From the IMG/VR virus record IMGVR_UViG_2526164631_000023: a stretch of 64,000 nt of DNA, one strand, 5' to 3'. Positions within the stretch are counted from its first letter, which is position 1; every line of letters starts with the position of its first letter. This document shows positions 3,183-63,974 of this stretch, piece by piece. A program made the translations under genes and the position numbers. The notes under the pieces are model-generated. The model was not told the origin of the DNA and did no database searches. It saw only the letters and a program-made list of their open reading frames with translations. The stretch is from a virus. Its lineage: Duplodnaviria; Heunggongvirae; Uroviricota; Caudoviricetes.

Positions 3183-3628
3183 AGCCAGATGTCCTGGCTG
3201 TCAGCTTCTTCGAAACCGTGACAGACGTTAAAGTCACTCAAACGATACTGACGCTGACGGCCCCTATTTCGCTCATGCCAATGCATATATCCACCAGCAA
3301 ATGCCAGCGGACAATCGCTATAGTCTATGTAACCAATACCATTCCCCAAACGTGCTTCGCGCGCACCAGCTTTCCAGGACAGTAGAAAAGAGTCACGATC
3401 CGCCAGCATAACAACAAAATCGTCCGGATCTCCGATACAGTGAAGAATACCTGCCTTACATAACTGCTTGAGCGCTTTTGACTGGCTCAGGATGTCTTCT
3501 CCGTAATACTGAAAACAATCATCAACAACAGCGGGATAGCCTGTCGGGGGATTCAGGCTGGTTGGTATAGCTGACGCGATCGCCAGCATTAAGCGATATT
3601 GTGTTTTTGATGGGTTGACGTGACTCAT
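3170..3628 (-). CDS. hypothetical protein (152 aa), second gene of a divergent two-gene operon
   Basis: ORF track; 16-bp gap to the upstream gene; convergent with and overlapping the Rz1 3' end. Confidence 0.4.
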   Translation of the reverse strand: MSHVNPSKTQYRLMLAIASAIPTSLNPPTGYPAVVDDCFQYYGEDILSQSKALKQLCKAGILHCIGDPDDFVVMLADRDSFLLSWKAGAREARLGNGIGYIDYSDCPLAFAGGYMHWHERNRGRQRQYRLSDFNVCHGFEEADSQDIWLQEP

Positions 3629-17823: not shown

Positions 17824-19250
17824 CGATTACAGAATTACTGGACAAATTTAACGCCAAGTTAAATGAAAACACATGGTGGTCACGATTTGTAAATAGTCAG
17901 TTTGTGCAGATGCACGCTATATTCGGATCGCAGCTTATTTATATTGCCCGTACATTTGCAAGCCGCGGCCTCACTGAGGGACTTATTTCAACGGCAACGC
18001 GTCGCTCAAGTATTTTAGCGGTTGCTGAAGACCGTAGCTACGTAGGGCGATTTGTTAGTGCTTCATACGGAACAACGTCTATAACCAATAAAACTGATCG
18101 GGATATTACGTTACCAGCCGGGGCTGAATTGCTTGCCAATGACCAAACACCTTTGGCAATTATTAACAGTGTTGTAATTCCTGCTGGAGGAACTGTTTCT
18201 GGCGTAGAAACTAAACAGCATGAAGCTGTTAGCATTACATTTGATATTGAGAAGGAAACTTTATTTCTGACATTGTTGCTTTCCAGAGAGTTAACAAAAG
18301 AAGTCTCTAGCCTGGATGTTTATGTTATTACAGATGGAGTAGAAGAAAAATGGACATATAACCCATTATTTAGAATGTCCAGAGACAAGAGTAAGCACTA
18401 TTCATTGGCATATAAACCTACAGAACAACTTGGAGTCAAGTTTGGTGATGGTTCTATGGGTATGATGCCTCCAGCAGGCTGTCAGGTTCGAATCGATGTT
18501 ATGGCTAGCCTTGGCGACTATACTTTGGCTGAAGGACAAAAGTTAGAACCGGCTGGAAATATCGCTCAATATGTGGAGTCACTAGAGTTTAAAACTGATT
18601 CGATCATTACCGGTGGTAGTGGTATGGAAACTACAGAAGAAACTCGAAATCGTGCTCAGTATTATGTTGCATACGATGAACAAGTGGTATGGGGCGGTGA
18701 TTATCGCCAATTCATTCAGAATGTTGTTCATGGAACTTCATGGTTGAACGTTTGGGGCGAAGCGTTGCAAGAGAAAATAACTGGGTTTGACGTTCGAAAC
18801 ATAAACAAGATTTTCTTTTGCGGACATAAGCCAGGTGTAAGCCAGGCTCAGCTAAAATCAGAAATACTGAAAGCTCTAGAGAATGTTCCAAATGAGTTGA
18901 ACAAGCGGTTTGAGTATGTAGATACAAATGAACAACCATTTACTATAAAATTTACAGGTATTGCACGTAAAAATGTTCTGATAGACGACGCTCAAAATGC
19001 TATTAAAGCAGCGTTGGAAGATAATTTTGGTCGTGATTCGTCATCATTCAGTTTATTACTACAGAGTGATGATGATTCTCAGCAATGTTATGCACAGGTA
19101 AAAGTTAAAGATATTTGGCGAGTAATAGAGTCGCTGGATATGTTTCTCTCTTATGACATAACAATACAAAATATGAAAGATGCAGTTTACTTTAATGACT
19201 TCATTTATCTTGACGTGAAATCTTCAACGTTCAGCATTTCTTACCCGTAA
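17820..19250 (+). CDS. baseplate J-like protein
   Basis: 476 aa; start overlaps the upstream stop; position in a baseplate cluster. Confidence 0.4.
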   Translation: MTITELLDKFNAKLNENTWWSRFVNSQFVQMHAIFGSQLIYIARTFASRGLTEGLISTATRRSSILAVAEDRSYVGRFVSASYGTTSITNKTDRDITLPAGAELLANDQTPLAIINSVVIPAGGTVSGVETKQHEAVSITFDIEKETLFLTLLLSRELTKEVSSLDVYVITDGVEEKWTYNPLFRMSRDKSKHYSLAYKPTEQLGVKFGDGSMGMMPPAGCQVRIDVMASLGDYTLAEGQKLEPAGNIAQYVESLEFKTDSIITGGSGMETTEETRNRAQYYVAYDEQVVWGGDYRQFIQNVVHGTSWLNVWGEALQEKITGFDVRNINKIFFCGHKPGVSQAQLKSEILKALENVPNELNKRFEYVDTNEQPFTIKFTGIARKNVLIDDAQNAIKAALEDNFGRDSSSFSLLLQSDDDSQQCYAQVKVKDIWRVIESLDMFLSYDITIQNMKDAVYFNDFIYLDVKSSTFSISYP

Positions 19251-19260
19251 TGAGGTTAGC

Positions 19261-20106
19261 ATGAAAGATAATTGGCTTAAGGAACGATTAACTAAAGTAA
19301 AACAGGATTCACATCTCTGGAGTGCATTTATAGACGCTTTACAGGATGTCTGGAATGAGGCAGTAGAACCAATATTAACAAGAATAAGTAACAGAAAATC
19401 CTTCTTCACTATGGACAGTGAGGACATGGATGCCCGCATTGCTGAATACGGGCGTTTTTTCGTTATCACTGAAAAAGATAAGGACCGTAGGCCAATGCTG
19501 CTGGCGCAACGTTTAGATGAAGTGCACTTTAAAGGCACTATCTTGCCTATTGAGCAGACATTCTGGCGTGAATTCGGTTGTATTCCTGTTAGTTGGGAAC
19601 CGCTGTATGCACCTGTAAATATAGAAAAACACCCCTATGGTTCATATTTTGCGACCGAAATAGAAATACCTACGGCACAGGCTCAATTCGGTGAGTTCTT
19701 CCTGACATCAAGGGGGCTGGTCGTTGTTGATCAGAACAAGCTATATCGCTCATATGGAGAGCAGGATAAAGAAGCCGCTGTGCAGAAATTGTTATCTGAC
19801 TTCGAAACAGTAATAGCCCCTTTGTTGCCATTGCATATTGTTTTTGATGGCGTCTCGTTTCGGCTTAGTGCTGTATTCCCTGAAGTGGCAGAAATACTAA
19901 ATTGCTTGTCTACGGATGTTTCGGTAATTGAAGGTGTTTATGTTACTGAGAGTATGGCTGATATGCTATCCCGTAGTGATACCTCCTGCCAGGTAAACAA
20001 TATTTCTCTTAACGCCATACCGAACAGAACGGCAGAAAAGCAATTACATCTTGATGTAACCCCACTCGATGCGTGGCCTTTGGATTACCACCTTCAACCT
20101 GTTTAA
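19261..20106 (+). CDS. baseplate/tail protein
   Basis: 281 aa; followed by a hairpin terminator at about 20110-20135. Confidence 0.3.
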   Translation: MKDNWLKERLTKVKQDSHLWSAFIDALQDVWNEAVEPILTRISNRKSFFTMDSEDMDARIAEYGRFFVITEKDKDRRPMLLAQRLDEVHFKGTILPIEQTFWREFGCIPVSWEPLYAPVNIEKHPYGSYFATEIEIPTAQAQFGEFFLTSRGLVVVDQNKLYRSYGEQDKEAAVQKLLSDFETVIAPLLPLHIVFDGVSFRLSAVFPEVAEILNCLSTDVSVIEGVYVTESMADMLSRSDTSCQVNNISLNAIPNRTAEKQLHLDVTPLDAWPLDYHLQPV

Positions 20107-20200
20107 TAATTCTTCCCCCAAATGCGGGGGAAGAACAACGGAAATCACAAACTGAGCATACTCTCCTTTGGTTCATTGCTTATGAAGGGGCTATGTTCGT

Positions 20201-20647
20201 ATGGCTGAAAATTTAAAGGCAAGAGATGGTAACCGCCTGTATAAGGCGCAATTGCTTTCCTACTATTATTCACGCCGCGCTGAGTCGGCGATCGGCAAAG
20301 GTGCGCGTTTTGTTATCTCTAAGGCGTATTGGTGCAAATCTAGTCTGGTAACTGCTAATGGTGCAGGAGGCTGGAATATAGCGGACATTCCACTCGATTT
20401 TAAATTGAGAAACGCTCAGCAGTTTGCTGTGTCCGATCTGATATTGTCCAGTGTGGATGGGATTATCACTATCAATGCAGCCTTCCCTCAAGAAAGAATG
20501 CCGGATAACACGCCTTACGACTTTAACACGCTTGTGCTTGTTGATGCTGAGGAACAGGCTTTTGCTGTGCTTTGCACCCAGCAAGACACCCTCTATAAAG
20601 GTAAACGTTACAGTATTCTCATGACAATCGAGCAAGTTGAGGGTTGA
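20201..20647 (+). CDS. tail-fibre-associated protein (P1 R-like position)
   Basis: 148 aa; stop overlaps the start of the fibre gene. Confidence 0.35.
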   Translation: MAENLKARDGNRLYKAQLLSYYYSRRAESAIGKGARFVISKAYWCKSSLVTANGAGGWNIADIPLDFKLRNAQQFAVSDLILSSVDGIITINAAFPQERMPDNTPYDFNTLVLVDAEEQAFAVLCTQQDTLYKGKRYSILMTIEQVEG

Positions 20648-23600
20648 TTATGGGTGCTGATAAAACGAACAACATAATGACACTATCCTCTGGTGTCTCA
20701 CAGCCGTTGCTTGCTGATGTTCAATATTTCGAACTCTATAGTAGTTCGGCTCTTAACAGAAAACTTAAAAATATTGTTTTGCCGGGCTTTTACTGTGGAT
20801 TTGAACCAGTTCCCGGCGCAGGGTTGAGAGTCCGTATAACTTCTGAAAACTCAGAAGGTAAAGGGGCTGCTTCAGTAGATGTAAATAATGTTCAGATATC
20901 CGTTCAGCAAATAGAAGATGTGACTGTCTCGGTAAAGGCTGGGGCTACCAACATTATTGTGCTAGAAGCCAATTTTGAACATGGTGTAAAAACGACACAG
21001 GTAGAGAGCGCATCTTCTGTCAGTGCTGCAAGAATTTACGCGCGTACGGACAATACTATTGGGCAGAATCAAATTGAATTATGTCGAGTTATCGTGCCTA
21101 ACGGCGCAACGGCTGTGACGAAAGAAATGATTGTGCTTAAATACCGGGTTAACCGTGCTGTTGGTGTCGAATTCTCTAATGAAATAAGCAGTACAGAAGA
21201 AAGAAAAGCGGCTACACCTCTGGCTGTCAAAACTCTCCATGATTTGGTTGATACAAAAGCTCCGCTCGATAGTCCACATCTGTCAGGTACGCCGACAGCA
21301 CCTACGGCCTCACAAGGCACAAATAGCACGCAGATTGCAAATACAGCCTTTGTTAAGGCAGCTATAACTGCACTTATCAACGGTGCACCTGGCACACTGG
21401 ATACGCTGAAAGAAATAGCGGCTGCGATCAATAACGACCCGAATTTCAGCACAACTATCAACAATGCCCTGGCTCTCAAAGCGCCTTTGGCAAGCCCGGC
21501 GTTCACAGGTACGCCGACAGCACCTACGGCCTCACAAGGCACAAATAGCACGCAGATTGCTACGACCGCTTATGTAAGAGCTGCCATATCCGCATTGGTT
21601 GGTTCATCACCAGAAGCTCTTGATACCCTGAATGAGCTTGCCGCAGCACTTGGTAATGACCCGAACTTTGCGACAACAATGACAAATGCGCTGGCAGGCA
21701 AACAGCCTCTGGATGCAACTTTAACCGCTCTTGCTTCCCTTGCGACTGGTGCAAACAAACTGCCTTATTTCACGGGTAAGGATACGGTAGCTCAGACTGA
21801 TTTAACGTCAGTCGGTCGCGATATTCTGGCTAAAACAAGCATACTGGCCGTTATCCAATACCTTGGTTTAAGAGAACTCGGTACCAGCGGTGAAAAGATC
21901 CCCCTGTTAAGCACAGCTAACACATGGAGTGCGCGCCAGACTTTCAACGGCGGGATCACCGGGGCGCTGACAGGGAACGCCGACACCGCGACGAAATTGA
22001 AAACCAAAAGGTCGCTTCAAGTTGACCTCCAAAGTGATAACGCCATCGACTTTGATGGTTCATCAAATGCTCTTCTGGGCATAAAAGGTATTTTACCAAT
22101 TACTCATGGGGGATTAGGTGCATCCAGCGTCTCTGGAGGGCGTACTAATCTTGGATTAGGTGTTGCGGACGTCCCCCAATTTAAGGGTATCAATCTTGTT
22201 AACTCAACAGACGCTGATTTAGCCGCGTCAGGGATTGTAAGTGGTTATCTGAATAATTCAGCTGGGGTACAGAGGAGTCGTTTCAGAATTTATTCAGAGA
22301 TAAGGAGTGGCAACCGCTCATGGCTGACGTTACATCTACAATCTGATACCAACACCAATAAATATGCCGGATTAGACATTGACGGTAACTTTCTGATTAC
22401 CGGAGATAGCAAATGCCGAGCATTAGAACCAACTGATGCAGCGTTAACAAGAAAAAATATTGATGTTTACAGCAAAGCCGAAGTAGACCTTAAAAAAGGG
22501 ATGAAATTCACCAGAGTCAATGCTCCTTCTGGAGCTGAAGAGGGTAAATTCTATCCTGTAGTCATCAAGAGATCTGCAACGAGCAATGGTGAACTTGCTT
22601 CTCGGGTTATTATTTCCACTGCGTCGCGCCAAGCTGCACATCGCATGAACAACTGCGAATTCAATGGTTTTGTGATGCCTGCTGGTTGGAGTGACAGAGG
22701 GCGGTACGCATACGGGATGTTCTGGCAATATCAGGATGCAGAACGGGCGATTCATTCTATTGCGATGAGCAATAAAGACGATGAAGTTAGCTCAGTTTTT
22801 TATATTGAAGGCGGAGCATTTCCAGTATGCGTTCTTGTGGAGGAGGGGCTTTCTGTTGTTGTCCCTACAACGGATTATATTGTTGGACAAACCACATACA
22901 AATGGGGGGCTACCAACCCTAAAGCTGAATGTATAGCTGCCGACATAATTATTGATTTTAGCAATGGTCGTGGTTTCTATAGCTCTGGAAACCTCAATGG
23001 TAATGCTGCAACAGCAACTAAATTACAGACCGCCAGAACAATCAACGGAGTAACCTTCGATGGCACTACTGATATTTCGTTGACACCAGAGAACATTGGC
23101 GCGCTGTCTCTATCCGGAGGCACATTATTAGGAGGTCTGACAGCTCCATTACTTACCACTAAAAGCGATCTTATTTTTAGTAGCCATACAAGCCGTCATA
23201 TCCGCTTTACATATACGAAAAATGACGGCACAACACTAACTGATGGGTACATATTTAAAGATGGCGTCGATAACCCTAACAGACGACCAGGCATCCGGAT
23301 AAATTGTGCTGCGCCGAATAAAGAAACCGGCAATGGTACTAATTCAGGTGATTGGATATTCGGTGAAGATGGCATTTTTACCATGCCGGGTGGCACTGTT
23401 CTTCGGGGAGGAATCAATAGCAATGGCGTGCCGCAAAGTGAGTATAAACATGACATGCTCACGTCAGTTGTTGACGATGCAAAAATGTATCTGCGACGTT
23501 TCCGCTCCAGCACAGGTGCAAGCATATGGCATGAAACAATAGAGAATAATGTTTATCGCTTATGCACAGGAACAACTGACGCTCAGGAAGAGTTAGTCTT

Positions 23601-24969
23601 GAGGACTGGTTCCTATGCGAAATTCGCTGGCGAGATTATTTCCAAATCGGCGAATGGTCTGCGCATTGTCTATGGCAACTATGGATTCTTTATCCGAAAC
23701 GATGGTTCAAGCACATACTTCATGTTGACCGATTCGGGTAACAGCCTAGGAACCTATAATAGGTTAAGGCCGCTTATCATTAACAATGCCAATGGTGCTG
23801 TTACGATCGGTAATGGACTCAATGTTACTGGCGGCATCAATGGTAGTTTGAACGGTAATGCTGCAACTGCAACAAAACTGCAAACAGCACGCACAATAGG
23901 CGGTGTGTCATTCGATGGCTCCGCCAATATCAACCTGCCGGGTGTAAACATTGCTGGTAACCAGAACACAACCGGTAATGCAGCGACAGCGACCAAGTTG
24001 CAGACAGCATGTACTATCAACGGCGTCTCGTTTGATGGTTCTAAAGATATTGAACTTAACCCACGGTCTATAGGCACGATCAACTCCACAACAATGTCTT
24101 TTAGTGGTGGTGCTGGATGGTTCAAGCTAGCAACTGTAACCATGCCACAGGCCAGTTCCGTGGTTTACATAAGCCTGATTGGTGGTGCAGGGTATAACGT
24201 TGGCTCCCCGCATCAAGCAGGCATCTCTGAGCTGGTTCTGCGTGCCGGAAATGGAAATCCAAAAGGTATTACTGGTGCATTATGGCGACGGACCTCGGTT
24301 GGATTTACTAATTTTGCATGGGTGAATACATCTGGTGATACCTATGATGTTTATGTTGAAATAGGTAATTACGCCACAGGTGTTAATATTCAGTGGGATT
24401 ATACCAGTAACGCCAGCGTAACGATTCATACATCACCAACTTATACAGCGAATAAACCAACAGGCCTGACAGATGGAACTGTATATGTAATTTACAGTTC
24501 GCACATTAAACCGACTGCTGCTGATGTTGGGGCGTTGTCATTATCTGGAGGTCAATTGAATGGTGCACTGGGCATCGGAACATCCAGTGCTCTTGGCGGT
24601 AACTCGATTGTTTTGGGTGATAATGACACGGGCTTTAAACAAAATGGCGACGGTAATCTGGACGTTTATGCTAATAACGTCCATGTTATGCGCTTTGTCT
24701 CCGGCAGCATTCAAAGTAATAAAACCATAAATATTACAGGGCGTGTTAACCCCTCGGATTACGGTAACTTTGATTCCCGTTATGTGAAAGATGTTCGCCT
24801 GGGTACGCGTGTTGTTCAATTGATGGCGCGTGGTGGTCGTTATGAAAAAGCCGGACACGCAATTACCGGATTAAGAATCATTGGTGAAGTAGATGGCGAT
24901 GATGAAGCCATCTTCAGACCAATACAAAAATACATCAATGGCACATGGTATAACGTCGCACAGGTGTAA
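20644..24969 (+). CDS. tail fibre protein (constant part Sc codons 1-407 fused to the currently expressed variable part Sv)
   Basis: 1441 aa; repeated fibre motifs NGNAATATKLQTARTINGV(S/T)FDG, ALSLSGG; C-terminus FRPIQKYINGTWYNVAQV parallels the Sv' C-terminus. Confidence 0.8.
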   Translation: MIMGADKTNNIMTLSSGVSQPLLADVQYFELYSSSALNRKLKNIVLPGFYCGFEPVPGAGLRVRITSENSEGKGAASVDVNNVQISVQQIEDVTVSVKAGATNIIVLEANFEHGVKTTQVESASSVSAARIYARTDNTIGQNQIELCRVIVPNGATAVTKEMIVLKYRVNRAVGVEFSNEISSTEERKAATPLAVKTLHDLVDTKAPLDSPHLSGTPTAPTASQGTNSTQIANTAFVKAAITALINGAPGTLDTLKEIAAAINNDPNFSTTINNALALKAPLASPAFTGTPTAPTASQGTNSTQIATTAYVRAAISALVGSSPEALDTLNELAAALGNDPNFATTMTNALAGKQPLDATLTALASLATGANKLPYFTGKDTVAQTDLTSVGRDILAKTSILAVIQYLGLRELGTSGEKIPLLSTANTWSARQTFNGGITGALTGNADTATKLKTKRSLQVDLQSDNAIDFDGSSNALLGIKGILPITHGGLGASSVSGGRTNLGLGVADVPQFKGINLVNSTDADLAASGIVSGYLNNSAGVQRSRFRIYSEIRSGNRSWLTLHLQSDTNTNKYAGLDIDGNFLITGDSKCRALEPTDAALTRKNIDVYSKAEVDLKKGMKFTRVNAPSGAEEGKFYPVVIKRSATSNGELASRVIISTASRQAAHRMNNCEFNGFVMPAGWSDRGRYAYGMFWQYQDAERAIHSIAMSNKDDEVSSVFYIEGGAFPVCVLVEEGLSVVVPTTDYIVGQTTYKWGATNPKAECIAADIIIDFSNGRGFYSSGNLNGNAATATKLQTARTINGVTFDGTTDISLTPENIGALSLSGGTLLGGLTAPLLTTKSDLIFSSHTSRHIRFTYTKNDGTTLTDGYIFKDGVDNPNRRPGIRINCAAPNKETGNGTNSGDWIFGEDGIFTMPGGTVLRGGINSNGVPQSEYKHDMLTSVVDDAKMYLRRFRSSTGASIWHETIENNVYRLCTGTTDAQEELVLRTGSYAKFAGEIISKSANGLRIVYGNYGFFIRNDGSSTYFMLTDSGNSLGTYNRLRPLIINNANGAVTIGNGLNVTGGINGSLNGNAATATKLQTARTIGGVSFDGSANINLPGVNIAGNQNTTGNAATATKLQTACTINGVSFDGSKDIELNPRSIGTINSTTMSFSGGAGWFKLATVTMPQASSVVYISLIGGAGYNVGSPHQAGISELVLRAGNGNPKGITGALWRRTSVGFTNFAWVNTSGDTYDVYVEIGNYATGVNIQWDYTSNASVTIHTSPTYTANKPTGLTDGTVYVIYSSHIKPTAADVGALSLSGGQLNGALGIGTSSALGGNSIVLGDNDTGFKQNGDGNLDVYANNVHVMRFVSGSIQSNKTINITGRVNPSDYGNFDSRYVKDVRLGTRVVQLMARGGRYEKAGHAITGLRIIGEVDGDDEAIFRPIQKYINGTWYNVAQV
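21851..21876 (+). promoter_or_regulatory. Hin/Gin/Cin-type crossover site 1 inside the fibre gene (core TT at 21863-21864)
   Basis: TTATCCAATACC TT GGTTTAAGAGAA versus gix/hix consensus TTATCNAAAACC NN GGTTTNNGATAA. Confidence 0.6.
23627..23865. repeat. left copy of an about 237-bp inverted repeat within the fibre distal modules
   Basis: Reverse complement of 26652-26890 with only about 2 mismatches; encodes EIISKSANGLRIVYGNYGFFIRNDGSSTYFMLTDSGNSLGTYNRLRPLIINNANGAVTIGNGLNVTGGINGSLNGN in both genes. Confidence 0.8.
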
Positions 24970-26064: not shown

Positions 26065-27735
26065 TTAAATACTCCCCGCGTTATACCACGTCCCATTAAT
26101 GCAATACTGAATTGGCCTTGCCTGAGTTGTATCAATTAATTCATCACGGTTTCCGTTAACTGAACCCGTAACGACATAACCTGACCTGTCAGACCAGCCG
26201 GGACCATTCCATGTCTGAACAGATGACAGACCGCCAAGGCGAATACCTGTAATAAACCTTGAGTTACATTCTGCCTGCGTGTATGCACCAACATCTCCCG
26301 CAGAGGGTTTGCGGGTCGTGGTGTAAAACTCTGACCAGTCAGCCTCAAATCCATAACCATCACGCGCTGAACGATAAAAGATACCGCCGTTTTTATAATT
26401 CACGCGGAACTGTACAGCAGGGCAACTCCCCGCATTCATATTAAAGTGGAGGATTAATGTCGATGCGCCACCAATGTTTGCGTTATAGACCCCGCTATTC
26501 CAGTTCCAGCCAACAGCTTTATCATTTGCGACCCTGCTTCCTGTTTGCCCTAGAGCAAACGCACCTACATGACTTGCTTTTAATGTGATATCGGAGGAAC
26601 CATCAAAAGCCACGCCACTTATTTTTCTGGCAGTTTGTAACTTTGTAGCCGTAGATGCATTACCGTTCAAACTACCATTGATGCCGCCAGTAACATTGAG
26701 TCCATTACCGATCGTAACAGCACCATTGGCATTGTTAATGATAAGCGGCCTTAACCTATTATAGGTTCCTAGGCTGTTACCCGAATCGGTCAACATGAAG
26801 TATGTGCTTGAACCATCGTTTCGGATAAAGAATCCATAGTTGCCATAGACAATACGAAGACCATTCGCCGATTTGGAAATAATCTCGCCAGCAGCAGTTA
26901 ATCCGCCAGTTAACGCTCCTCCAGATAGTGGTAAAGCTCCGACATCAGCCGCAGTAGGCTTGTTTTTAGTGTTATACGCTCTGCGCCATCCTGGTGAATA
27001 ACTTGTGCCATTAGACACATAGATAAATTCAGCATTAGTGAGTGCGCCAGATACACTTGTCATCGTTGCCGTTGTTATTCGAATGGTGTAATTGTTGGTA
27101 TTATTGCTGAATACTTCTATCACAGCACCCGCCAGTGGAATAATGCCACAACCAGTTTCACTGTCTGGTATGGATGCACTATTTGCATACGCCCAAGCAC
27201 AACGAGCGAACCATGCTTTCGTATTGAATGCCCCGTTATTTTGCAACAAAGTAACTAACTGGGCTGTCGTTATTGACTCACCGTTATTACCTGTTGTTAA
27301 CCAACCAGTAGGAGATGCCGGGCAACCAATATTTGCTGGTGACAGTGAAATATTCGCAGAACCGTCAAATGAAACCCCATTAATGGTACGTGCTGTTTGT
27401 AATGTCGTGGCAGACGCCGCATTTCCTGTTGTGTTCTGGTTGCCCGTTGTATTTACGCCCGGTATGGAGTCTTTCGATGTATAGACCTGTGCCCACTCAG
27501 ACCATGCCGCACCTGTGTAATCTCTTCGGGAGCGAATGAAAACTGGCGCATGTGCACCGCTCGTACCACTCCAGCCAATAAGCAACTCGCCCTCACCAGC
27601 AGCACTCGCACCTTTCATGTGCAATACGTTGCCATACGTGGTCGGGTAGCTATTGTTGTACGCCTCGTACATTTGAATGCCAGCAGCGCCTTGAGTAGAG
27701 CCGCTTAACGCCGTAACTCGGCCACGAGATACCAA
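26065..27735 (-). CDS. alternative tail fibre distal segment Sv' (no ATG, preceded by in-frame TAA; silent in the present orientation)
   Basis: 556-aa ORF opening at TTG 27735-27733; C-terminus RPIQYCINGTWYNAGSI; fibre motifs; shares the 237-bp inverted repeat with the expressed fibre gene. Confidence 0.7.
   Translation of the reverse strand: MVSRGRVTALSGSTQGAAGIQMYEAYNNSYPTTYGNVLHMKGASAAGEGELLIGWSGTSGAHAPVFIRSRRDYTGAAWSEWAQVYTSKDSIPGVNTTGNQNTTGNAASATTLQTARTINGVSFDGSANISLSPANIGCPASPTGWLTTGNNGESITTAQLVTLLQNNGAFNTKAWFARCAWAYANSASIPDSETGCGIIPLAGAVIEVFSNNTNNYTIRITTATMTSVSGALTNAEFIYVSNGTSYSPGWRRAYNTKNKPTAADVGALPLSGGALTGGLTAAGEIISKSANGLRIVYGNYGFFIRNDGSSTYFMLTDSGNSLGTYNRLRPLIINNANGAVTIGNGLNVTGGINGSLNGNASTATKLQTARKISGVAFDGSSDITLKASHVGAFALGQTGSRVANDKAVGWNWNSGVYNANIGGASTLILHFNMNAGSCPAVQFRVNYKNGGIFYRSARDGYGFEADWSEFYTTTRKPSAGDVGAYTQAECNSRFITGIRLGGLSSVQTWNGPGWSDRSGYVVTGSVNGNRDELIDTTQARPIQYCINGTWYNAGSI
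26652..26890. repeat. right copy of the about 237-bp inverted repeat
   Basis: See 23627-23865. Confidence 0.8.
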
Positions 27736-27759
27736 TGTATTAATGTTGGTTTAAGAGAA
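27734..27759 (+). promoter_or_regulatory. crossover site A (core TT at 27746-27747), same orientation as site 1
   Basis: AATGTATTAATG TT GGTTTAAGAGAA; right half identical to site 1, left half degenerate. Confidence 0.5.
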
Positions 27760-36848: not shown

Positions 36849-37337
36849 GTGAGTATTTTAAATTCAGTTTCAGTAACTTTCAACACTTCTGAGTATAAAA
36901 ACAACACTGAATACCACAAAAAAATCAAAGGTCATCAGTTGAGTTTTTTTGCTCGTCATAGCGGTCTTCTTTCCCCTTCACATAGCGCCATTATTGCCGA
37001 GTTCGCCAACCTGGCAGGGTCTACCGATGAATACATGATCCGTCGCTCATATGCTGATATGTCCGAGATTACAGGACGCAGTATTTCTACTGTGCGCCGG
37101 GCATTTGCTGAAGCGACGAAGTGCGGAATGCTTGTTAAGCAACATCAGGTAGCGAATAACAATGCCCAGGTGTGTAACGTATATCGGTTTACGACACAAT
37201 TTCTCCACTTCATTCATGTAGCAATGGAGATAGGGGGTAAGCAGGGCATCAAATTTGCCAACGCCACAAAACTGGTTAAGCAGTTGATTTCAAAGGTTCG
37301 TTATTTTTTGAAACTGGGACCCCCCTGTTCAAATTGA
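36849..37337 (+). CDS. HTH-domain protein (possible transcription regulator)
   Basis: 162 aa; MSEITGRSISTVRRAFAEA helix-turn-helix-like segment. Confidence 0.3.
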   Translation: MSILNSVSVTFNTSEYKNNTEYHKKIKGHQLSFFARHSGLLSPSHSAIIAEFANLAGSTDEYMIRRSYADMSEITGRSISTVRRAFAEATKCGMLVKQHQVANNNAQVCNVYRFTTQFLHFIHVAMEIGGKQGIKFANATKLVKQLISKVRYFLKLGPPCSN

Positions 37338-37810
37338 ACAAGTCCCCCCATGTTCAAAATGAACAGCCAATAGAAAATAAGAGTCACTCTATAGCCAAAA
37401 GAAGAGAAAGATCATGCGCGGTTCAGCCAAAGGCTTCACCAGCAGATAGTTCTCAAACGGCTAACGTGGTGCTGGATAAAAAACCAGTAATCAGGGAAGA
37501 ACATACCAACCACTGCCTGGCGGCGGCAAAAGCGAGAGCTGCAAAGCGTCGTTCAGACGAGGGGCACGCAAAACGGCAGGCTCTGTATCGTACCGCTGAA
37601 AAGCTGGCAAAAAAATTTGCATGGATACGTAGTGCCGCTACCGCAGTGAATAAGCCTAAACAATCCAGTGCCCTGGATTTCTCAATGGATTATTCTGGCT
37701 CCCAGGGGTGTGCAACCATTGGTGAAGCCTTTGACCTGATGAAACAGCGTGGCTATCGGTCTGAATTTGACCGTGAGGATTGGTCAATCCCGGCTGGCTT
37801 TAGGGGATGA
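37334..37810 (+). CDS. hypothetical basic protein
   Basis: 158 aa; ORF track. Confidence 0.3.
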   Translation: MNKSPHVQNEQPIENKSHSIAKRRERSCAVQPKASPADSSQTANVVLDKKPVIREEHTNHCLAAAKARAAKRRSDEGHAKRQALYRTAEKLAKKFAWIRSAATAVNKPKQSSALDFSMDYSGSQGCATIGEAFDLMKQRGYRSEFDREDWSIPAGFRG

Positions 37811-37862
37811 CCTGTGCGTCTACAAAACATCCCAATGATCGGAAAATGCTCGCTCAATAATT

Positions 37863-37873
37863 TGTGTTAGAAA
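37863..37873 (+). promoter_or_regulatory. TGTGTTAGAAA motif copy with partial inverted partner
   Basis: TTTGTGTTAGAAAATTAATTTGATGTTTCTAAATC. Confidence 0.4.
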
Positions 37874-37999
37874 ATTAATTTGATGTTTCTAAATCGGAAT
37901 GTATGATCTGCATCATCGACTGAAGTCATCCATTGCTGAAATTTTTAGTTGATCTTCCATGTTTTCAGGCTTATATTCATGTCGTCGTAGCAAATTCTG

Positions 38000-38200
38000 C
38001 GACCGGGTTTAGCAGCCTGAATACGAATGCGGACAACCGCAGATATCCGATATTGCGGTATTTTTGTGTCCGTAAAACCACGTTACGCCCGAATTATGGT
38101 GGGGCGTGATGGGGAGGCTTCGGCCTGCTGGTTTCATTCGTGCCAGTCTGCTAACCCCGTCACGTCCTGCCACCCGTTTAGCAGCGGGTGCGCAGGTTGT
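38000..38200 (+). ncRNA. candidate c4-like antisense RNA / structured leader
   Basis: GGGTTTAGCAGC (about 38004) and CGTTTAGCAGCGGG (about 38174) are both complementary to GTCTGCTAACCCC (about 38146); hairpin CACCCG-TTTAGCAG-CGGGTG. Confidence 0.2.
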
Positions 38201-38225
38201 TAAACCTACGAATGAGGCCGTAACT

Positions 38226-38450
38226 ATGGTTAATGCCAATCCTTGCTCGCGCCCGGAATTTATCTGGCGTTTCCACTCCCTGCAAAAACACTGCGATCAC
38301 TTCGCAATTGCCGCAACTGAAAAAGAAGCCCGTTCTCTGATCCCTGATCAACATGGCGTCCTGACTGGCCGTTTCTCTACTTCATCACAACCAAACACTA
38401 ATCCTTGGTATCGCAATATTACCAATCCCGGAATTGCGGAGGCACACTGA
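38226..38450 (+). CDS. small ORF translationally coupled to the antirepressor (P1 icd-like arrangement)
   Basis: 74 codons from ATG 38226 (GAGG RBS); stop TGA 38448-38450 overlaps the antirepressor ATG 38450 (TGATG). Confidence 0.3.
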   Translation: MVNANPCSRPEFIWRFHSLQKHCDHFAIAATEKEARSLIPDQHGVLTGRFSTSSQPNTNPWYRNITNPGIAEAH

Positions 38451-39157
38451 TGGATATCTGCATTCTTGAAAAGCCATCAATGACCAGCATTGAGATCGCG
38501 GAGCTGGTGGGAAAACGTCATGACAATGTGAAGCGTACCATTGAAACATTAGCCGAATCCGGCGTTATTGTTCGTCCTCAAATTGAGGATGAACCAAAAA
38601 TAGATGTAATGGGGCGTTCTCGATTAATTCAGGTGTTCCGATTTAGCGACGAGCAAGGCAAACGAGACAGTATCATTGTAGTCGCACAGCTTTGTCCTGA
38701 GTTTACTGCCCGGCTGGTGGACCGCTGGCGCGAACTGGAAGAACAAGCACGCCAGCCGTTGACCGAAATAGAGATGATCGCCGCAATGGCTGCAAATGCA
38801 GTTCAGCAGCAAAAGCGGCTTCATGTTGTTGAGTCAAAGGTTAGCCAGGTGGTAGAAACCGTCGAGCAAATCAAGAAGGGCAACATGCCGGAAGGTTACA
38901 TTGGCTACCGCCAGCTGGCGGCAAAATGCGGCCTGACCGAAGCCAAATGTCGCAACCTGGTTAACGCTTACCGGATTCCCACCGATACACATGAGTTTTT
39001 AACTCCAGAGGGGGTATTGTCGCGTCGTTCCATCGTGGCCTTATCTCCCTTCATGAATGCTTTTAACCGGATGATGTCGGAGGCTGAACACCGAGGAAAA
39101 CGCTGGTATCACCCCAAAATGGGGCAATTCCAGGTGATCGGTTGGGGAGGTGAGTGA
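38450..39157 (+). CDS. Rha-family antirepressor-like regulatory protein
   Basis: N-terminus MDICILEKPSMTSIEIAELVGKRHDNVKRTIETL matches the Rha domain; GGAGG RBS. Confidence 0.6.
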   Translation: MDICILEKPSMTSIEIAELVGKRHDNVKRTIETLAESGVIVRPQIEDEPKIDVMGRSRLIQVFRFSDEQGKRDSIIVVAQLCPEFTARLVDRWRELEEQARQPLTEIEMIAAMAANAVQQQKRLHVVESKVSQVVETVEQIKKGNMPEGYIGYRQLAAKCGLTEAKCRNLVNAYRIPTDTHEFLTPEGVLSRRSIVALSPFMNAFNRMMSEAEHRGKRWYHPKMGQFQVIGWGGE

Positions 39158-39354
39158 TGGACATCATGCAGGCGGTAAAAAAAATCAGGGAAGGACATGC
39201 TGAAGTGTGCCGCCGTAAAGCATGGAGTGTTGGTGTATGGGCCTGGCCTGATAATTACTCTACTACCGGATGGTTTTGTATTAATGGACTCCAGATCCGG
39301 GAAGTTGATTTATCGACGGCTGATATAGTCGGTAATGATTGGATCGTGACTTGA
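39154..39354 (+). CDS. DUF2829-like small protein (Tad2-like fold candidate)
   Basis: 66 aa; IMQAVKKIREGHAEVCRRKAW ... ADIVGNDWIV resembles the DUF2829 pattern (ALKALKEGKKVRRxGW ... DWEI). Confidence 0.4.
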   Translation: MMDIMQAVKKIREGHAEVCRRKAWSVGVWAWPDNYSTTGWFCINGLQIREVDLSTADIVGNDWIVT

Positions 39355-39363
39355 AGCGTGATG

Positions 39364-39387
39364 CCCCGGCCTGGCCGGGGCTTTTTT
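39364..39387. terminator. bidirectional rho-independent terminator
   Basis: CCCCGGCCTGGCCGGGGCTTTTTT. Confidence 0.6.
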
Positions 39388-39872
39388 CATGCCTCATTAG
39401 TTGAGGTTGCTGCGTCTCCGACTGGTAACAGAGCGGTATTGCGTGGTTCGCCAGCAGGCCAGCGATAGCCAGACACTCTTGATGTTGGGAATGCGCGAAT
39501 ATTAACCGCATCCCCCTGGTTCCCACCCAGGACAAGCAGATCGCCATTGGCGCGGCGTCCGACAACGAAGCCTACGTGCCCACCGCCTACGCGGGTAAAT
39601 ACAACGATACATCCGTATGCCGGTGTATCTAATTTCTCGCCCCAATCCAGATAGGATTTTGCCGACTCAAATCTTGTTGAGCGGATGCCTACACGTTCCA
39701 GCATTGCACCGACAAATGCTGCGCACCACGGCGTTTCATCGTCTTTAATTCCGCCGCGCTTGATGTCGCGCCAGAACTGAACGATTTCAGGGTTGTGTTT
39801 AGCGCCTTTTATTTCAGTCAGGCCAATGTGCTTACGGGCTTCAATTAGCCAGCGAGGTTCAATGTTTGCCAT
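39387..39872 (-). CDS. putative cell-wall peptidase (NlpC/P60- or CHAP-like)
   Basis: 161 aa; Cys...His arrangement (PWCAAFVGAM ... GGGHVGFVVG) typical of papain-like amidases. Confidence 0.4.
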   Translation of the reverse strand: MANIEPRWLIEARKHIGLTEIKGAKHNPEIVQFWRDIKRGGIKDDETPWCAAFVGAMLERVGIRSTRFESAKSYLDWGEKLDTPAYGCIVVFTRVGGGHVGFVVGRRANGDLLVLGGNQGDAVNIRAFPTSRVSGYRWPAGEPRNTALLPVGDAATSTNEA

Positions 39873-51292: not shown

Positions 51293-51369
51293 GATGGTGT
51301 AGCTCAGTAGGATAGAGCAGCAGCCTTCTAAGCTGTCGGTAGGTGGTTCGAATCCACCCACCATCGCCA
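51293..51369 (+). tRNA. tRNA-Arg (anticodon TCT)
   Basis: Manual cloverleaf: acceptor GATGGTG/CACCATC, D-stem GCTC/GAGC, anticodon loop CTTCTAA, T-arm GGTGG-TTCGAAT-CCACC, CCA end. Confidence 0.7.
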
Positions 51370-51374
51370 ATTTA

Positions 51375-51461
51375 GGGGAGTTAGTCCGTAGGGGTAGCGG
51401 GGTAGACTGTAAATCTACTGTCATTGCGACTCGGGTGGTTCGACTCCATCACTCCCCACCA
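51375..51461 (+). tRNA. tRNA-Tyr (anticodon GTA), long variable arm
   Basis: Acceptor GGGGAGT/ACTCCCC, anticodon arm GTAGA-CTGTAAA-TCTAC, T-loop TTCGACT, CCA end. Confidence 0.65.
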
Positions 51462-51465
51462 AATT

Positions 51466-51541
51466 GCCGGTTTAGCTCAGTTGGTAGAGCAGTCGCTTTG
51501 TAAGCGAATGGTCAGCGGTTCGATCCCGTTAACCGGCACCA
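51466..51541 (+). tRNA. tRNA-Thr (anticodon TGT)
   Basis: GCCGGTTTAGCTCAGTTGGTAGAGC...TTTGTAA...GGTTCGATCC...AACCGGCACCA; close to E. coli tRNA-Thr as recalled. Confidence 0.7.
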
Positions 51542-52511: not shown

Positions 52512-52587
52512 GGCCCTTTAGCTCAGTGGTTAGAGCGGGCGACTCATAATCGCACGGTCACCGGTTCAAGTCCGGTAGGGGCCACCA
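52512..52587 (+). tRNA. tRNA with anticodon CAT, most like tRNA-Ile2 (lysidine type); elongator Met not excluded
   Basis: GGCCCTTTAGCTCAGTGGTTAGAGCGGGCGACTCATAATCGC...GGTTCAAGTCC...GGGGCCACCA, close to E. coli ileX-type tRNA as recalled. Confidence 0.65.
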
Positions 52588-57404: not shown

Positions 57405-58442
57405 TTACCAGAGCTTTGCGGCGTGCTGCGTTTGGGGGAATGTGTATCCGTAACGTTCTTCGATTGCTTTGCCGTATTTTTTACGCGCTTCATTCAGTTT
57501 GATGCCGGTCAGGTCGTCTCCAGAGGCCATCATTACGTCTAACAATTCCAGATCCATTTTATCCAGCCTTGCCATTGCTTCACGCGATGTACGAATCTTA
57601 CGTTCAATGATATGGCGAATGGCCGGATCGGCATCCTCCAGCATCTTAGCGGATTTCTGCTTAAGGTTTTCGTTGCGAATATCGATGTTCCTTAAGATGT
57701 ACGACTTCGCAACGTAGCTTGGCTGGTGTTTTTCCAGGTCACGAACACGATATAAGTTAAAATCGCCGAGAAGGCTGCAAGGTACCGATTCGACGCCAGA
57801 ATAAATTGTAATGCTCCGGCGTTCACCAACATTATTGACAACGGGGATCGTTGTCTTCGGTAGTCTTGCGAAAACCAATGCGCCATGTGCGCCAACTCTA
57901 AAGCGAGAAAGGGCATTGCTGCCTTCGATGTTTGTTGTCAGCACAACATCTGTATATGCCTCTTTACGCGCCCGGTAGATCTCGCCTTCAGGCTCAGCTT
58001 CAAAGAAGCGCTGTTCTTCTTCAAGAGCACCTACGATTTGAGAAAAAACCCTATTTTTCAGGCTTTTCTTTATGATTTTGTCGTATTTTTTGAGCAATTG
58101 CTCACGTGTAAATGTACGTGTTGTTGTAGCGCTTTGCACAACAACATGCGTGCTTTGATTGGTGTCCTCAATGATGAATGGGATCGGAGAATATACAGAC
58201 TCAACAATGTTCGACGCTTTGCCGTCGGCATCGCGACACATGTCAACGAAGGCTTTCCATTCAGCAAGACATTTTTCAGCTTCTTCTAATATGTTTTGGT
58301 CATGCGTTAATGCAACATGGCGGAATTCCTCGCCAGCATAACTGGTATCATGGAAAACAGAGTTTGCGACCACCAGCTCTTTCCACCGTTCAGCGGTTTG
58401 CAGGAACCGTTTGTACTCTTTCTCGATCGACTTCTTACTCAT
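57405..58442 (-). CDS. hypothetical protein at the position where P1 carries the c1 repressor (candidate regulator)
   Basis: 345 aa; between terminase and the lox-like site; TGTTAGAAA motif immediately upstream of its start. Confidence 0.3.
   Translation of the reverse strand: MSKKSIEKEYKRFLQTAERWKELVVANSVFHDTSYAGEEFRHVALTHDQNILEEAEKCLAEWKAFVDMCRDADGKASNIVESVYSPIPFIIEDTNQSTHVVVQSATTTRTFTREQLLKKYDKIIKKSLKNRVFSQIVGALEEEQRFFEAEPEGEIYRARKEAYTDVVLTTNIEGSNALSRFRVGAHGALVFARLPKTTIPVVNNVGERRSITIYSGVESVPCSLLGDFNLYRVRDLEKHQPSYVAKSYILRNIDIRNENLKQKSAKMLEDADPAIRHIIERKIRTSREAMARLDKMDLELLDVMMASGDDLTGIKLNEARKKYGKAIEERYGYTFPQTQHAAKLW

Positions 58443-61260: not shown

Positions 61261-63974
<2,714 letters not shown>

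Follow-up and report, generated by a model that had tools for sequence, protein, structure and literature searches.

Among the closest described systems are the immI (immunity I) modules of phages P1 and P7, which run in the order promoter, a1/b1, c4, a2/b2, icd and antirepressor gene, the last two coupled by a stop/start overlap. The 5′ end of the P1 c4 RNA is generated by a cut by RNase P, and expression of the P1 antirepressor also needs escape from Rho-dependent termination. In 1990, Citron and Schuster reportedly defined the c4 RNAs of P1 and P7 genetically as trans-acting repressors. A further relative is the isrK-orf45-anrP locus of Gifsy-1 in Salmonella, where the short IsrK RNA, which bears a1/b1, acts in trans to switch on translation of the ORF and antirepressor gene that follow it (PMC4825925). 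The annotation of phage D6 carries icd and an anti-repressor gene, and for the D6-like plasmid group c4, icd, the antirepressor and a second c4-icd region are already on record (PMC6799933).

We analyzed a region of a 64,000-nt stretch of viral DNA (IMG/VR record IMGVR_UViG_2526164631_000023; hereafter, the window), which is a D6-like E. coli phage-plasmid. The region is very likely the immI module of this P1-related element. The c4-icd-antirepressor system that it carries is already known and is not a discovery, and an initial annotation of the region had read it essentially correctly. The P1-like immI architecture proposed there was borne out by matches to the Rfam C4 and c4-a1b1 families, by Icd homology, and by DNA identity of 86–88% to P1/P7 from the promoter into icd; the sequence elements it had named were all present, at or within 1–2 nt of where it had placed them. 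For every feature annotated in P1 (P51b, a1, b1, c4, a2, b2 and icd), the alignment gives a counterpart in the window. The features, all on the + strand, are as follows.

37860–37879, +: operator-like motif, with the core TGTGTTAGAAA at 37863–37873
37880–37907, +: promoter-like sequence TTGATG-16-TATGAT, adjoining the motif; consensus match only
37949–37977, +: promoter TTGATC-17-TATATT, aligning to the annotated P1 promoter P1c4 (former P51b)
37971–38023, +: Rfam c4-a1b1 element, two successive hairpins, the second with a1 in its loop
38009–38015, +: a1 (TTAGCAG), the upstream "a" target, exact complement of a′
38023–38029, +: b1 (ACGAATG), the upstream "b" target, exact complement of b′
38036–38069, +: putative terminator-like hairpin (ACCGCA...TGCGGT, then ATTTTTGTGT), corresponding to the IsrK terminator
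38098–38174, +: c4 antisense RNA, a 77-nt mature form predicted by homology with the annotated P1/P7 C4 RNA
38135–38141, +: b′ (CATTCGT), recognition sequence, looped out in c4 hairpin 2
38148–38154, +: a′ (CTGCTAA), recognition sequence, single-stranded between hairpin 2 and the closing stem
38178–38184, +: a2 (TTAGCAG), downstream target 4 nt 3′ of c4, homologous in position to the annotated P1 a2
38208–38214, +: b2 (ACGAATG), abutting or overlapping the icd Shine-Dalgarno sequence GAGG (38214–38217), homologous to the annotated P1 b2
38226–38450, +: icd-like gene, 74 aa (NF033153, 40.4 bits; cut-off 25)
38450–39157, +: gene for a Rha-type putative antirepressor, 235 aa, with GGAGG (38438–38442) 7 nt upstream of its ATG
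39157–39354, +: gene for a 65-aa protein with a Tad2/DUF2829-like predicted fold, with GGAGG (39146–39150) upstream
39363–39387, +: intrinsic terminator, a hairpin (39363–39381) with a GC-only 8-bp stem and a 3-nt loop, then TTTTTT

The non-coding stretch that precedes icd, from the repL stop (37810) to the icd ATG (38226), measures 415 bp and not the 550 bp originally given for the leader. The repL gene of the window is frameshifted. An in-frame 114-codon ORF (38106–38450) was rejected as a gene, because it merely reads through c4. Identity of the window with NZ_CP066033.1 was likewise rejected; a homopolymer indel, an extra IS100 and inverted segments distinguish the two.

The module differs from those of P1 and P7 in what surrounds the c4-icd core. 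A Rha-type protein stands in place of Ant1, and the next gene is the Tad2-like ORF, not kilA-repL; repL lies upstream, where P1 has sim genes, and the upstream operator is unlike the P1 C1 consensus. Phage D6 is closer: its orf19-orf17 region is 92% identical over 1.6 kb, and D6 and D6-like plasmid prophages such as pYU39_89 share with the window their backbone and the order repL, icd, antirepressor, small ORF, peptidoglycan hydrolase and darB-like gene. D6 has another "a" (TTGACAG) and another "b" (ACTTACG) allele, however, and D6 and the element analyzed here would therefore be expected to be heteroimmune at immI. Similarly to Gifsy-1, where translation of an antirepressor-like gene is coupled to that of a 45-codon ORF, the window has a short ORF (icd) in front of its Rha gene. 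The window leader, comprising a1/b1 and the terminator hairpin, aligns to the IsrK model, and the processed STnc1160 RNA downstream of isrK and the c4 RNA are candidate counterparts.

The c4 RNA that the initial annotation had suggested from local complementarity was recovered by covariance models. RF01695 (C4) matched over its full length (model positions 1–87) at 38092–38177 with 71.9 bits against a gathering score of 45, and RF03163 (c4-a1b1) matched at 37971–38023 with 52.2 bits against 46.7. The c4 sequence folds with −45.7 kcal/mol (z = −6.3) into a long closing stem around two hairpins, in which a′ and b′ are unpaired; the minimum-free-energy and centroid folds coincide. Relative to P7 c4 the predicted 77-nt RNA has 5 differences, all in the b′ loop, and relative to P1 c4 it has 7, with the closing stem and the 3′ CCACC unchanged from P1. 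The complementary triplet noted originally is present as GTCTGCTAACCCC (38146–38158), GGGTTTAGCAGC (38005–38016) and CGTTTAGCAGCGGG (38175–38188). These segments hold a′, a1 and a2, and the exactly complementary core of this "a" triplet is 7 nt. A second complementary triplet, consisting of b1, b′ and b2 with exact 7-nt matches, had been overlooked. The window combines the "a" of P7 with a "b" (ACGAATG) that is absent from P1, P7 and D6.

We surveyed 114 IMG/VR loci and analyzed covariation across 53 distinct sequences. The loci were picked by an exact 25-nt c4 core and are therefore close relatives. In these relatives the complementary elements are conserved as such and co-vary, the opposite of an outcome that the initial annotation had named as refuting. 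Across the 114 loci, a1 and a2 were identical to each other and to the reverse complement of a′ in all 13 allele combinations; the same held for b1, b2 and b′ in 12 of the 13, the exception being a single poorly aligned locus. Between c4 and a2/b2, 98.4% of cells were paired and 183 were changed on both sides; between c4 and a1/b1, the values were 99.9% and 188, many of these covarying cells being the product of shared ancestry and not of independent events. When the partner columns were slid as a control, pairing was about 30%, with a range of 22–52%. Column entropy was 0.64 bits within the elements and 0.10 bits outside them, and the energy of the loop-to-target duplex was about −21 kcal/mol for cognate pairs as against −9 to −17 kcal/mol for non-cognate pairs. 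The P1-type c4 occurs with at least 13 a × b combinations and a second c4 type with 4. These combinations are shared across P1-like and D6-like backbones, and the plasmid family also contains a diverged c4 paralog of the same layout, whose a/b sequences are unrelated. We found no description of c4 allele diversity beyond P1/P7 in the literature searched, which is weak evidence, as few subscription journals were covered.

Upstream of c4, the operator-like motif is present in 9 copies with at most one mismatch in the window, compared with 1.6 expected, and none of 100 shuffles reached 9. Other copies lie 20 nt upstream of a C1-like ORF (57405–58442, − strand) and upstream of repL, and the copy at 37860–37879 occupies the position of Op51 in P1. 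This copy is probably a binding site of the D6-type C1-like repressor. The protein encoded by the C1-like ORF is just 21% identical to P1 C1, and the P1 C1 operator consensus had no match in the window at up to 3 mismatches. The promoter-like sequence at 37880–37907 may be a repressor-controlled promoter analogous to P1 P2c4/P51a, the repeated motif being the basis for such control; four promoter-like sites were found in total, with 3.1 expected in shuffles. The isrK model (RF01394) aligned at 37984–38065 but, with 46.5 bits, fell short of its gathering score of 50, while the paralogous copy on the plasmid outside the window scored 62.5 and passed. The leader hairpin at 38036–38069 is nearly invariant in an alignment of relatives; a simple terminator scan did not call it on the + strand.

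The Icd protein shares 62% identity with its P1 counterpart (E 1e-27). As originally described, icd ends in a TGATG overlap, its TGA at 38448–38450 sharing a nucleotide with the ATG of the Rha ORF at 38450–38452. In P1, icd (3261–3482) overlaps ant1, which begins at 3479. The overlap in the window mirrors this arrangement, and translational coupling is predicted here too. The ATG of the 65-aa ORF (39157) in turn overlaps the Rha TGA (39155–39157). The operon ends at a terminator that had been called strong and bidirectional: it is convincing on the + strand, but no site was called on the − strand, where no T-run follows the stem, and "bidirectional" is therefore unsupported.

The Rha assignment of the putative antirepressor held, PF09669 (Rha) matching residues 11–98 with 37.1 bits against a gathering score of 29.9 and phrog_63 ("anti-repressor Ant") matching with 3e-46. 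TIGR02681 reached 18.2 bits, below its cut-off of 45.95. BLASTP gave no similarity between the Rha protein and P1 Ant1 (E 0.38), and the protein is not homologous to Ant1/Ant2; a search of PDB sequences returned nothing relevant to it.

For the 65-aa protein, a word-indexed search found just 3 near-identical proteins, and an exhaustive HMMER search found 6, one of them a false PKD-repeat match. PF11195 (Tad2-like/DUF2829) scored 16.1 bits, below its cut-off of 25. Foldseek matches of a first AlphaFold2 model (5 sequences, pLDDT 60) were meaningless; an informative model was built from 12 sequences (pLDDT 78), and its best predicted-fold matches were Tad2/DUF2829 anti-Thoeris sponges, including AcrIIA7/HgmTad2. 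The description of the gene as DUF2829 thus relies mainly on resemblance in predicted fold. The solved Tad2 proteins are longer than the 65-aa protein, whose domain is fused to the Rha C-terminus in relatives.

Since all six recognition elements would lie on one transcript, pairing in cis is possible, and alternative cis structures were seen in the Gifsy-1 study (PMC4825925). We nevertheless consider it extremely improbable that the elements occur in a structured leader incidentally, with no trans-acting RNA involved: two Rfam models (RF01695 and RF03163) scored above threshold, the P1/P7 annotation lists c4 as genetically defined trans-acting repressors, the three-way covariation takes in sites about 130 nt apart, and allelic diversity of this kind is expected under selection for heteroimmunity in trans. 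The protein encoded behind icd could be a Rha/Roi-type DNA-binding regulator or a factor for lytic growth, placed behind icd by chance, and not an antirepressor of a C1-like repressor. The missing homology to P1 Ant1, winged-helix matches (PF13412), the NCBIfam and PGAP name (just "Rha family transcriptional regulator") and a note in the D6 annotation that likens the protein to HK97 Roi are in keeping with such a role, and no link from the protein to a repressor was found in structures or experiments. Against this, the gene sits exactly in the ant1/2 slot behind c4-icd and has the stop/start coupling seen there, the phrog_63 entry is the best PHROG match of its product, and anrP, its positional equivalent in Gifsy-1, is an inducer of the prophage (PMC4825925). 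Taken together, these observations make a role other than antirepression unlikely, and we treat the Rha protein as the antirepressor, with the C1-like repressor as its assumed target.

The last gene of the operon had been presented as an anti-defence passenger, which is doubtful: the paralogous module and related contigs encode a fused Rha protein of 313 aa, and it is with the C-terminal domain of this protein that the 65-aa protein aligns. An independent passenger would be a Tad2-type sponge for Thoeris/CBASS nucleotides riding in an early immI operon, and an operon active straight after infection would fit an anti-defence gene. The DUF2829 proteins described in 10.1101/2023.05.01.538930 and 10.1101/2023.11.15.567273 sequester immune signals. 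PF11195 is the sole or top Pfam match over the full length of the protein, with E ≤ 1 in 6 of 12 family members and 23.9 bits at best, and the 8 best Foldseek matches of the informative model are all Tad2 structures (probability 0.89–0.99). None of the 12 family members, however, reaches the Pfam cut-off; a profile of the protein did not find Tad2 among PDB sequences, BLASTP against the bona fide DUF2829 protein of the same plasmid gave nothing, and 65 aa fall short of the 89 aa of SPO1 Tad2. We therefore regard an independent passenger as somewhat unlikely. Because its domain forms the C-terminus of a single Rha protein elsewhere, the 65-aa protein most likely works together with the Rha protein. 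A bolder version, which we rate as very unlikely, makes the Tad2-like domain a functional portion of the Rha-type antirepressor, fused to it in the paralogous module and split off here, which, if it still binds immune signaling nucleotides in the manner of Tad2, could couple prophage derepression to the Thoeris or CBASS alarm of the host; the fusion and the fold resemblance are supported, and the sensing role is pure conjecture. Should the domain sense immune signals, the phage-plasmid would leave a cell that has sensed infection. No mention of a Rha-type antirepressor with a Tad2-like domain, fused or split, was found in the literature searched.

With c4 as a trans-acting RNA and the Rha protein as the antirepressor, the module may work as follows; c4 processing, translational repression, polarity, antirepressor activity and the role of a1/b1 are here modeled on work with P1/P7 and Gifsy-1. 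Transcription would start at the P51b-homologous promoter (37949–37977), and possibly at a second, repressor-controlled promoter beside the motif at 37863. The transcript would cross the leader with a1/b1, the terminator-like hairpin and the c4 RNA, and c4 (38098–38174) would be excised from it. The exposed 7-nt b′ in its hairpin loop and the single-stranded a′ would then pair with b2 and a2, which lie a short way downstream on transcripts of the same kind. With b2 abutting its ribosome-binding site, icd would remain untranslated, and the antirepressor, whose start lies inside the icd stop codon and which would therefore depend on icd translation, would stay silent. The genes under control would be icd, the Rha-type antirepressor gene and that for the 65-aa Tad2-like protein. 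As a consequence, the C1-like repressor of the prophage would be left undisturbed, and a superinfecting phage of the same c4 type would be held in check. The upstream a1/b1 probably compete for c4, as a decoy or an anti-antisense, like the homologous short IsrK RNA in Salmonella Gifsy-1.

In P1, a1 and b1 are annotated merely as "putative", and in the loci surveyed here their covariation with c4 is as tight as that of the functional a2/b2. This covariation, together with the IsrK work, makes the long-unclear role of a1/b1, as a decoy or an anti-antisense, directly testable. The panel of c4 alleles also constitutes ready-made orthogonal sets of antisense RNAs and targets. From the number of a × b combinations, at least 13 for the P1-type c4 and 4 for the second type, immI heteroimmunity is predicted to extend to many classes besides the classical P1/P7 pair.

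The immI-type module of this phage-plasmid encodes a c4 antisense RNA together with two sets of sequences complementary to it. In a covariance search against Rfam, both the C4 antisense RNA (RF01695; 38092-38177, 71.9 bits, cut-off 45) and the a1/b1 target motif (RF03163; 37971-38023, 52.2 bits, cut-off 46.7) scored above their cut-offs. The c4-like complementarity described in the initial annotation was present within 1-2 nt of the positions assigned there, with an exact core of 7 nt; that annotation overlooked a second complementary set (b1, b' and b2), and its 550-bp leader corresponds to an untranslated gap of 415 bp. The positions of the promoter, a1, b1, c4, a2 and b2 were obtained by transferring the curated P1 annotation through an alignment of the window with P1.

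Features of the c4 region (plus strand; a' and b', recognition sequences of c4; a1/b1 and a2/b2, upstream and downstream copies of their targets)
37949-37977: promoter homologous to P51b, TTGATC-17-TATATT (P1 annotation transfer)
38009-38015: a1, 7-nt core TTAGCAG
38023-38029: b1, ACGAATG
38036-38069: terminator-like hairpin in the a1/b1 leader
38098-38174: c4, 77 nt (P1 annotation transfer)
38135-38141: b', CATTCGT
38148-38154: a', CTGCTAA, exact complement of the a1 and a2 core
38178-38184: a2, TTAGCAG, 4 nt past the c4 end
38208-38214: b2, ACGAATG, directly abutting the icd Shine-Dalgarno sequence

Structure prediction for the 77-nt c4 yielded the expected c4-type fold, two hairpins enclosed by a closing stem (-45.7 kcal/mol, z = -6.3); a' is single-stranded there and b' lies inside a loop. 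The window c4 differs from that of P7 at five positions, all within b', and from that of P1 at seven (four in b', two in a' and one beside a'). An ORF of 114 codons (38106-38450, starting at GTG) crosses c4 and continues in frame into icd; the absence of stop codons from this frame over the RNA gene is the sole reason for its existence, and it could be a trap for gene callers.

We then scanned IMG/VR with the exact c4 core and obtained 120 loci, 114 of them with complete regions. The complementary elements are kept in these relatives: a1 and a2 were identical to each other and to the reverse complement of a' in all 13 allele combinations, and the same held for b1, b2 and b' in 12 of 13, the exception being a single poorly aligned locus. 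Among 53 distinct sequences, 98.4% of cells were paired between c4 and a2/b2 (183 changed on both sides) and 99.9% between c4 and a1/b1 (188 changed on both sides), although these cell counts overstate independent events, as the loci were picked by an identical 25-nt core and are close relatives. When partner columns were slid by 1-3 positions as a control, only 22-52% of cells paired. Variation per column was 0.64 bits within the elements versus 0.10 outside.

Recognition alleles
P1: 'a' allele TTGACAG, 'b' allele GTTAGTG
P7: 'a' allele TTAGCAG, 'b' allele GATTGTG
D6: 'a' allele TTGACAG, 'b' allele ACTTACG
Window: 'a' allele TTAGCAG, 'b' allele ACGAATG

Predicted duplex energies were about -21 kcal/mol for cognate pairs and -9 to -17 kcal/mol for non-cognate pairs. 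Five 'b' alleles occurred with both 'a' alleles, and identical alleles were found on P1-like (Ant1) and D6-like (Rha) backbones alike.

Downstream of c4, the icd-like ORF (38226-38450, 74 codons) hits NF033153 and shares 62% identity with P1 Icd. Its stop codon (TGA) and the ATG of a 235-aa ORF overlap, confirming the stop/start overlap noted initially, and the TGA of the latter in turn overlaps the ATG of a 65-aa ORF (39157-39354); GGAGG lies 6-7 nt ahead of both downstream starts. The 235-aa protein scores above cut-off for the Rha domain (PF09669) and hits PHROG 63 ('anti-repressor Ant') at 3e-46, in agreement with the Rha-type antirepressor proposed from the sequence; BLASTP detected no similarity to P1 Ant1, and gene position and family names point to an antirepressor role. 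The operon ends in a hairpin with a stem of eight G-C pairs and a T6 tract after it. This agrees with the proposed terminator on the plus strand; none was called on the minus strand, which leaves its description as bidirectional unsupported.

The 65-aa protein, initially assigned to DUF2829, aligned over its full length with PF11195 (Tad2-like, formerly DUF2829) at 16.1 bits, below the threshold of 25, and 6 of 12 relatives also gave sub-threshold matches. In a second AlphaFold2 model (pLDDT 78), the best eight Foldseek matches were Tad2 structures. A Tad2 fold is therefore moderately supported, but membership in the PF11195 family is unproven. Elsewhere in the window, an extra IS100 copy (61741-63693, within region 61261-63693), absent from this site in E. 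coli plasmid NZ_CP066033.1, cuts a gene whose uncut product (225 aa) scores 80 bits with PF11195; this canonical DUF2829 gene beside dut is thereby inactivated.

Plasmid NZ_CP066033.1 (L123) also carries, beyond the window, a diverged paralogue of this immI module (18848-20270), comprising an isrK-type leader (62.5 bits), a C4 RNA (76.7 bits), an icd-like gene and one 313-aa ORF in which a Rha domain is fused to a Tad2-like domain. The window Rha protein aligns with residues 1-237 of this ORF (65% identity) and the 65-aa protein with residues 256-313 (43% identity). The fused form, common in database relatives, lies directly behind icd in one IMG/VR D6-like contig as well, indicating that the two window genes represent a split two-domain protein. 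The initial annotation regarded the 65-aa protein as an anti-defence passenger; its alignment to the C-terminal part of the fused Rha protein instead favours a function joint with the antirepressor over an unrelated passenger.

The c4 of the second module has recognition sequences (a' GTTCCAA, b' CCTTTTGC) unrelated to those of the window, each matched exactly by its a1/a2 or b1/b2 partners. Among related loci, two 'a' and two 'b' alleles make up every one of the four possible combinations, and the three-way match was perfect in 69 of 71 IMG/VR loci. In the other two (L170 and L176), which look like recombinants, a1 is of the other allele and a' and a2 still match, suggesting that an a1 mismatch is tolerated. 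A PGAP 'ash family protein' CDS (L123 20023-20142) overlies this C4 RNA, probably through a gene-calling error.

The sequence at 37800-39400 shares 100% identity with NZ_CP066033.1 and 92% with D6, a plasmid prophage related to P1. Gene content around it likewise corresponds to D6, with prt-like portal and pro-like genes, repL, the immI module, an oppositely oriented TIGR02594/CHAP hydrolase gene and a darB-like gene (2303 aa). The window is a near variant of NZ_CP066033.1 and a distinct record. repL, 320 aa in D6 and NZ_CP066033.1, is split in the window into two ORFs (36849-37337 and 37334-37810) because one base is missing from a T run (T6 at 37298-37303, T7 in NZ_CP066033.1), through either a genuine frameshift or a sequencing error in the homopolymer. 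Compared with NZ_CP066033.1, two segments near tail-fibre genes and a recombinase gene (21853-23932 and 26586-27748; 98-99% identity) run in the opposite direction, which fits a Cin-type invertible host-range segment in its alternative orientation. Four tRNA genes (three at 51293-51538, one at 52512-52584) are present, as in the tRNA regions of P1 and D6.

Icd and an anti-repressor are already annotated in D6, and c4, icd, antirepressor and a second c4-icd region have been noted in a D6-like plasmid (PMC6799933); the module was therefore correctly found but is already known. The searchable literature, outside which key subscription-journal papers lie, held no description of the breadth and free assortment of c4 recognition alleles or of a Tad2-like domain on a Rha-type antirepressor, which is weak evidence that these are new.

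The a1/b1 leader resembles IsrK, the short RNA of Salmonella prophage Gifsy-1, including the terminator-like hairpin, and scored 46.5 bits with the IsrK model, below the cut-off of 50. Because short IsrK activates translation of a downstream ORF and antirepressor in trans in Gifsy-1 (PMC4825925), this precedent suggests that a1/b1 may act as a decoy. At no more than one mismatch, the motif TGTGTTAGAAA is found at nine places in the window (4051, 36667, 37863, 47766, 48809, 50058, 50214, 58462 and 59871; 1.6 expected). Of these, one precedes a C1-like ORF (57405-58442, minus strand, 345 aa, 21% identity to P1 C1) by 20 nt and another is upstream of repL. Judging from this distribution, TGTGTTAGAAA is probably the operator of a D6-type master repressor, which may also control a second promoter at the module, as at P1 Op51.

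The module shares the design of P1/P7 immI with a different antirepressor. In P1 and P7, c4 is released from its leader RNA and pairs with a2/b2, which stops icd translation and thereby the coupled antirepressor's expression, as reportedly worked out by Citron and Schuster (1990), Biere et al. (1992), Riedel et al. (1993) and Hartmann et al. (1995). By homology, the c4 of the window would be excised from its leader transcript and pair with a2/b2, blocking icd translation and, with it, the coupled antirepressor expression; such control, as in P1/P7, is the most likely mode of regulation here.
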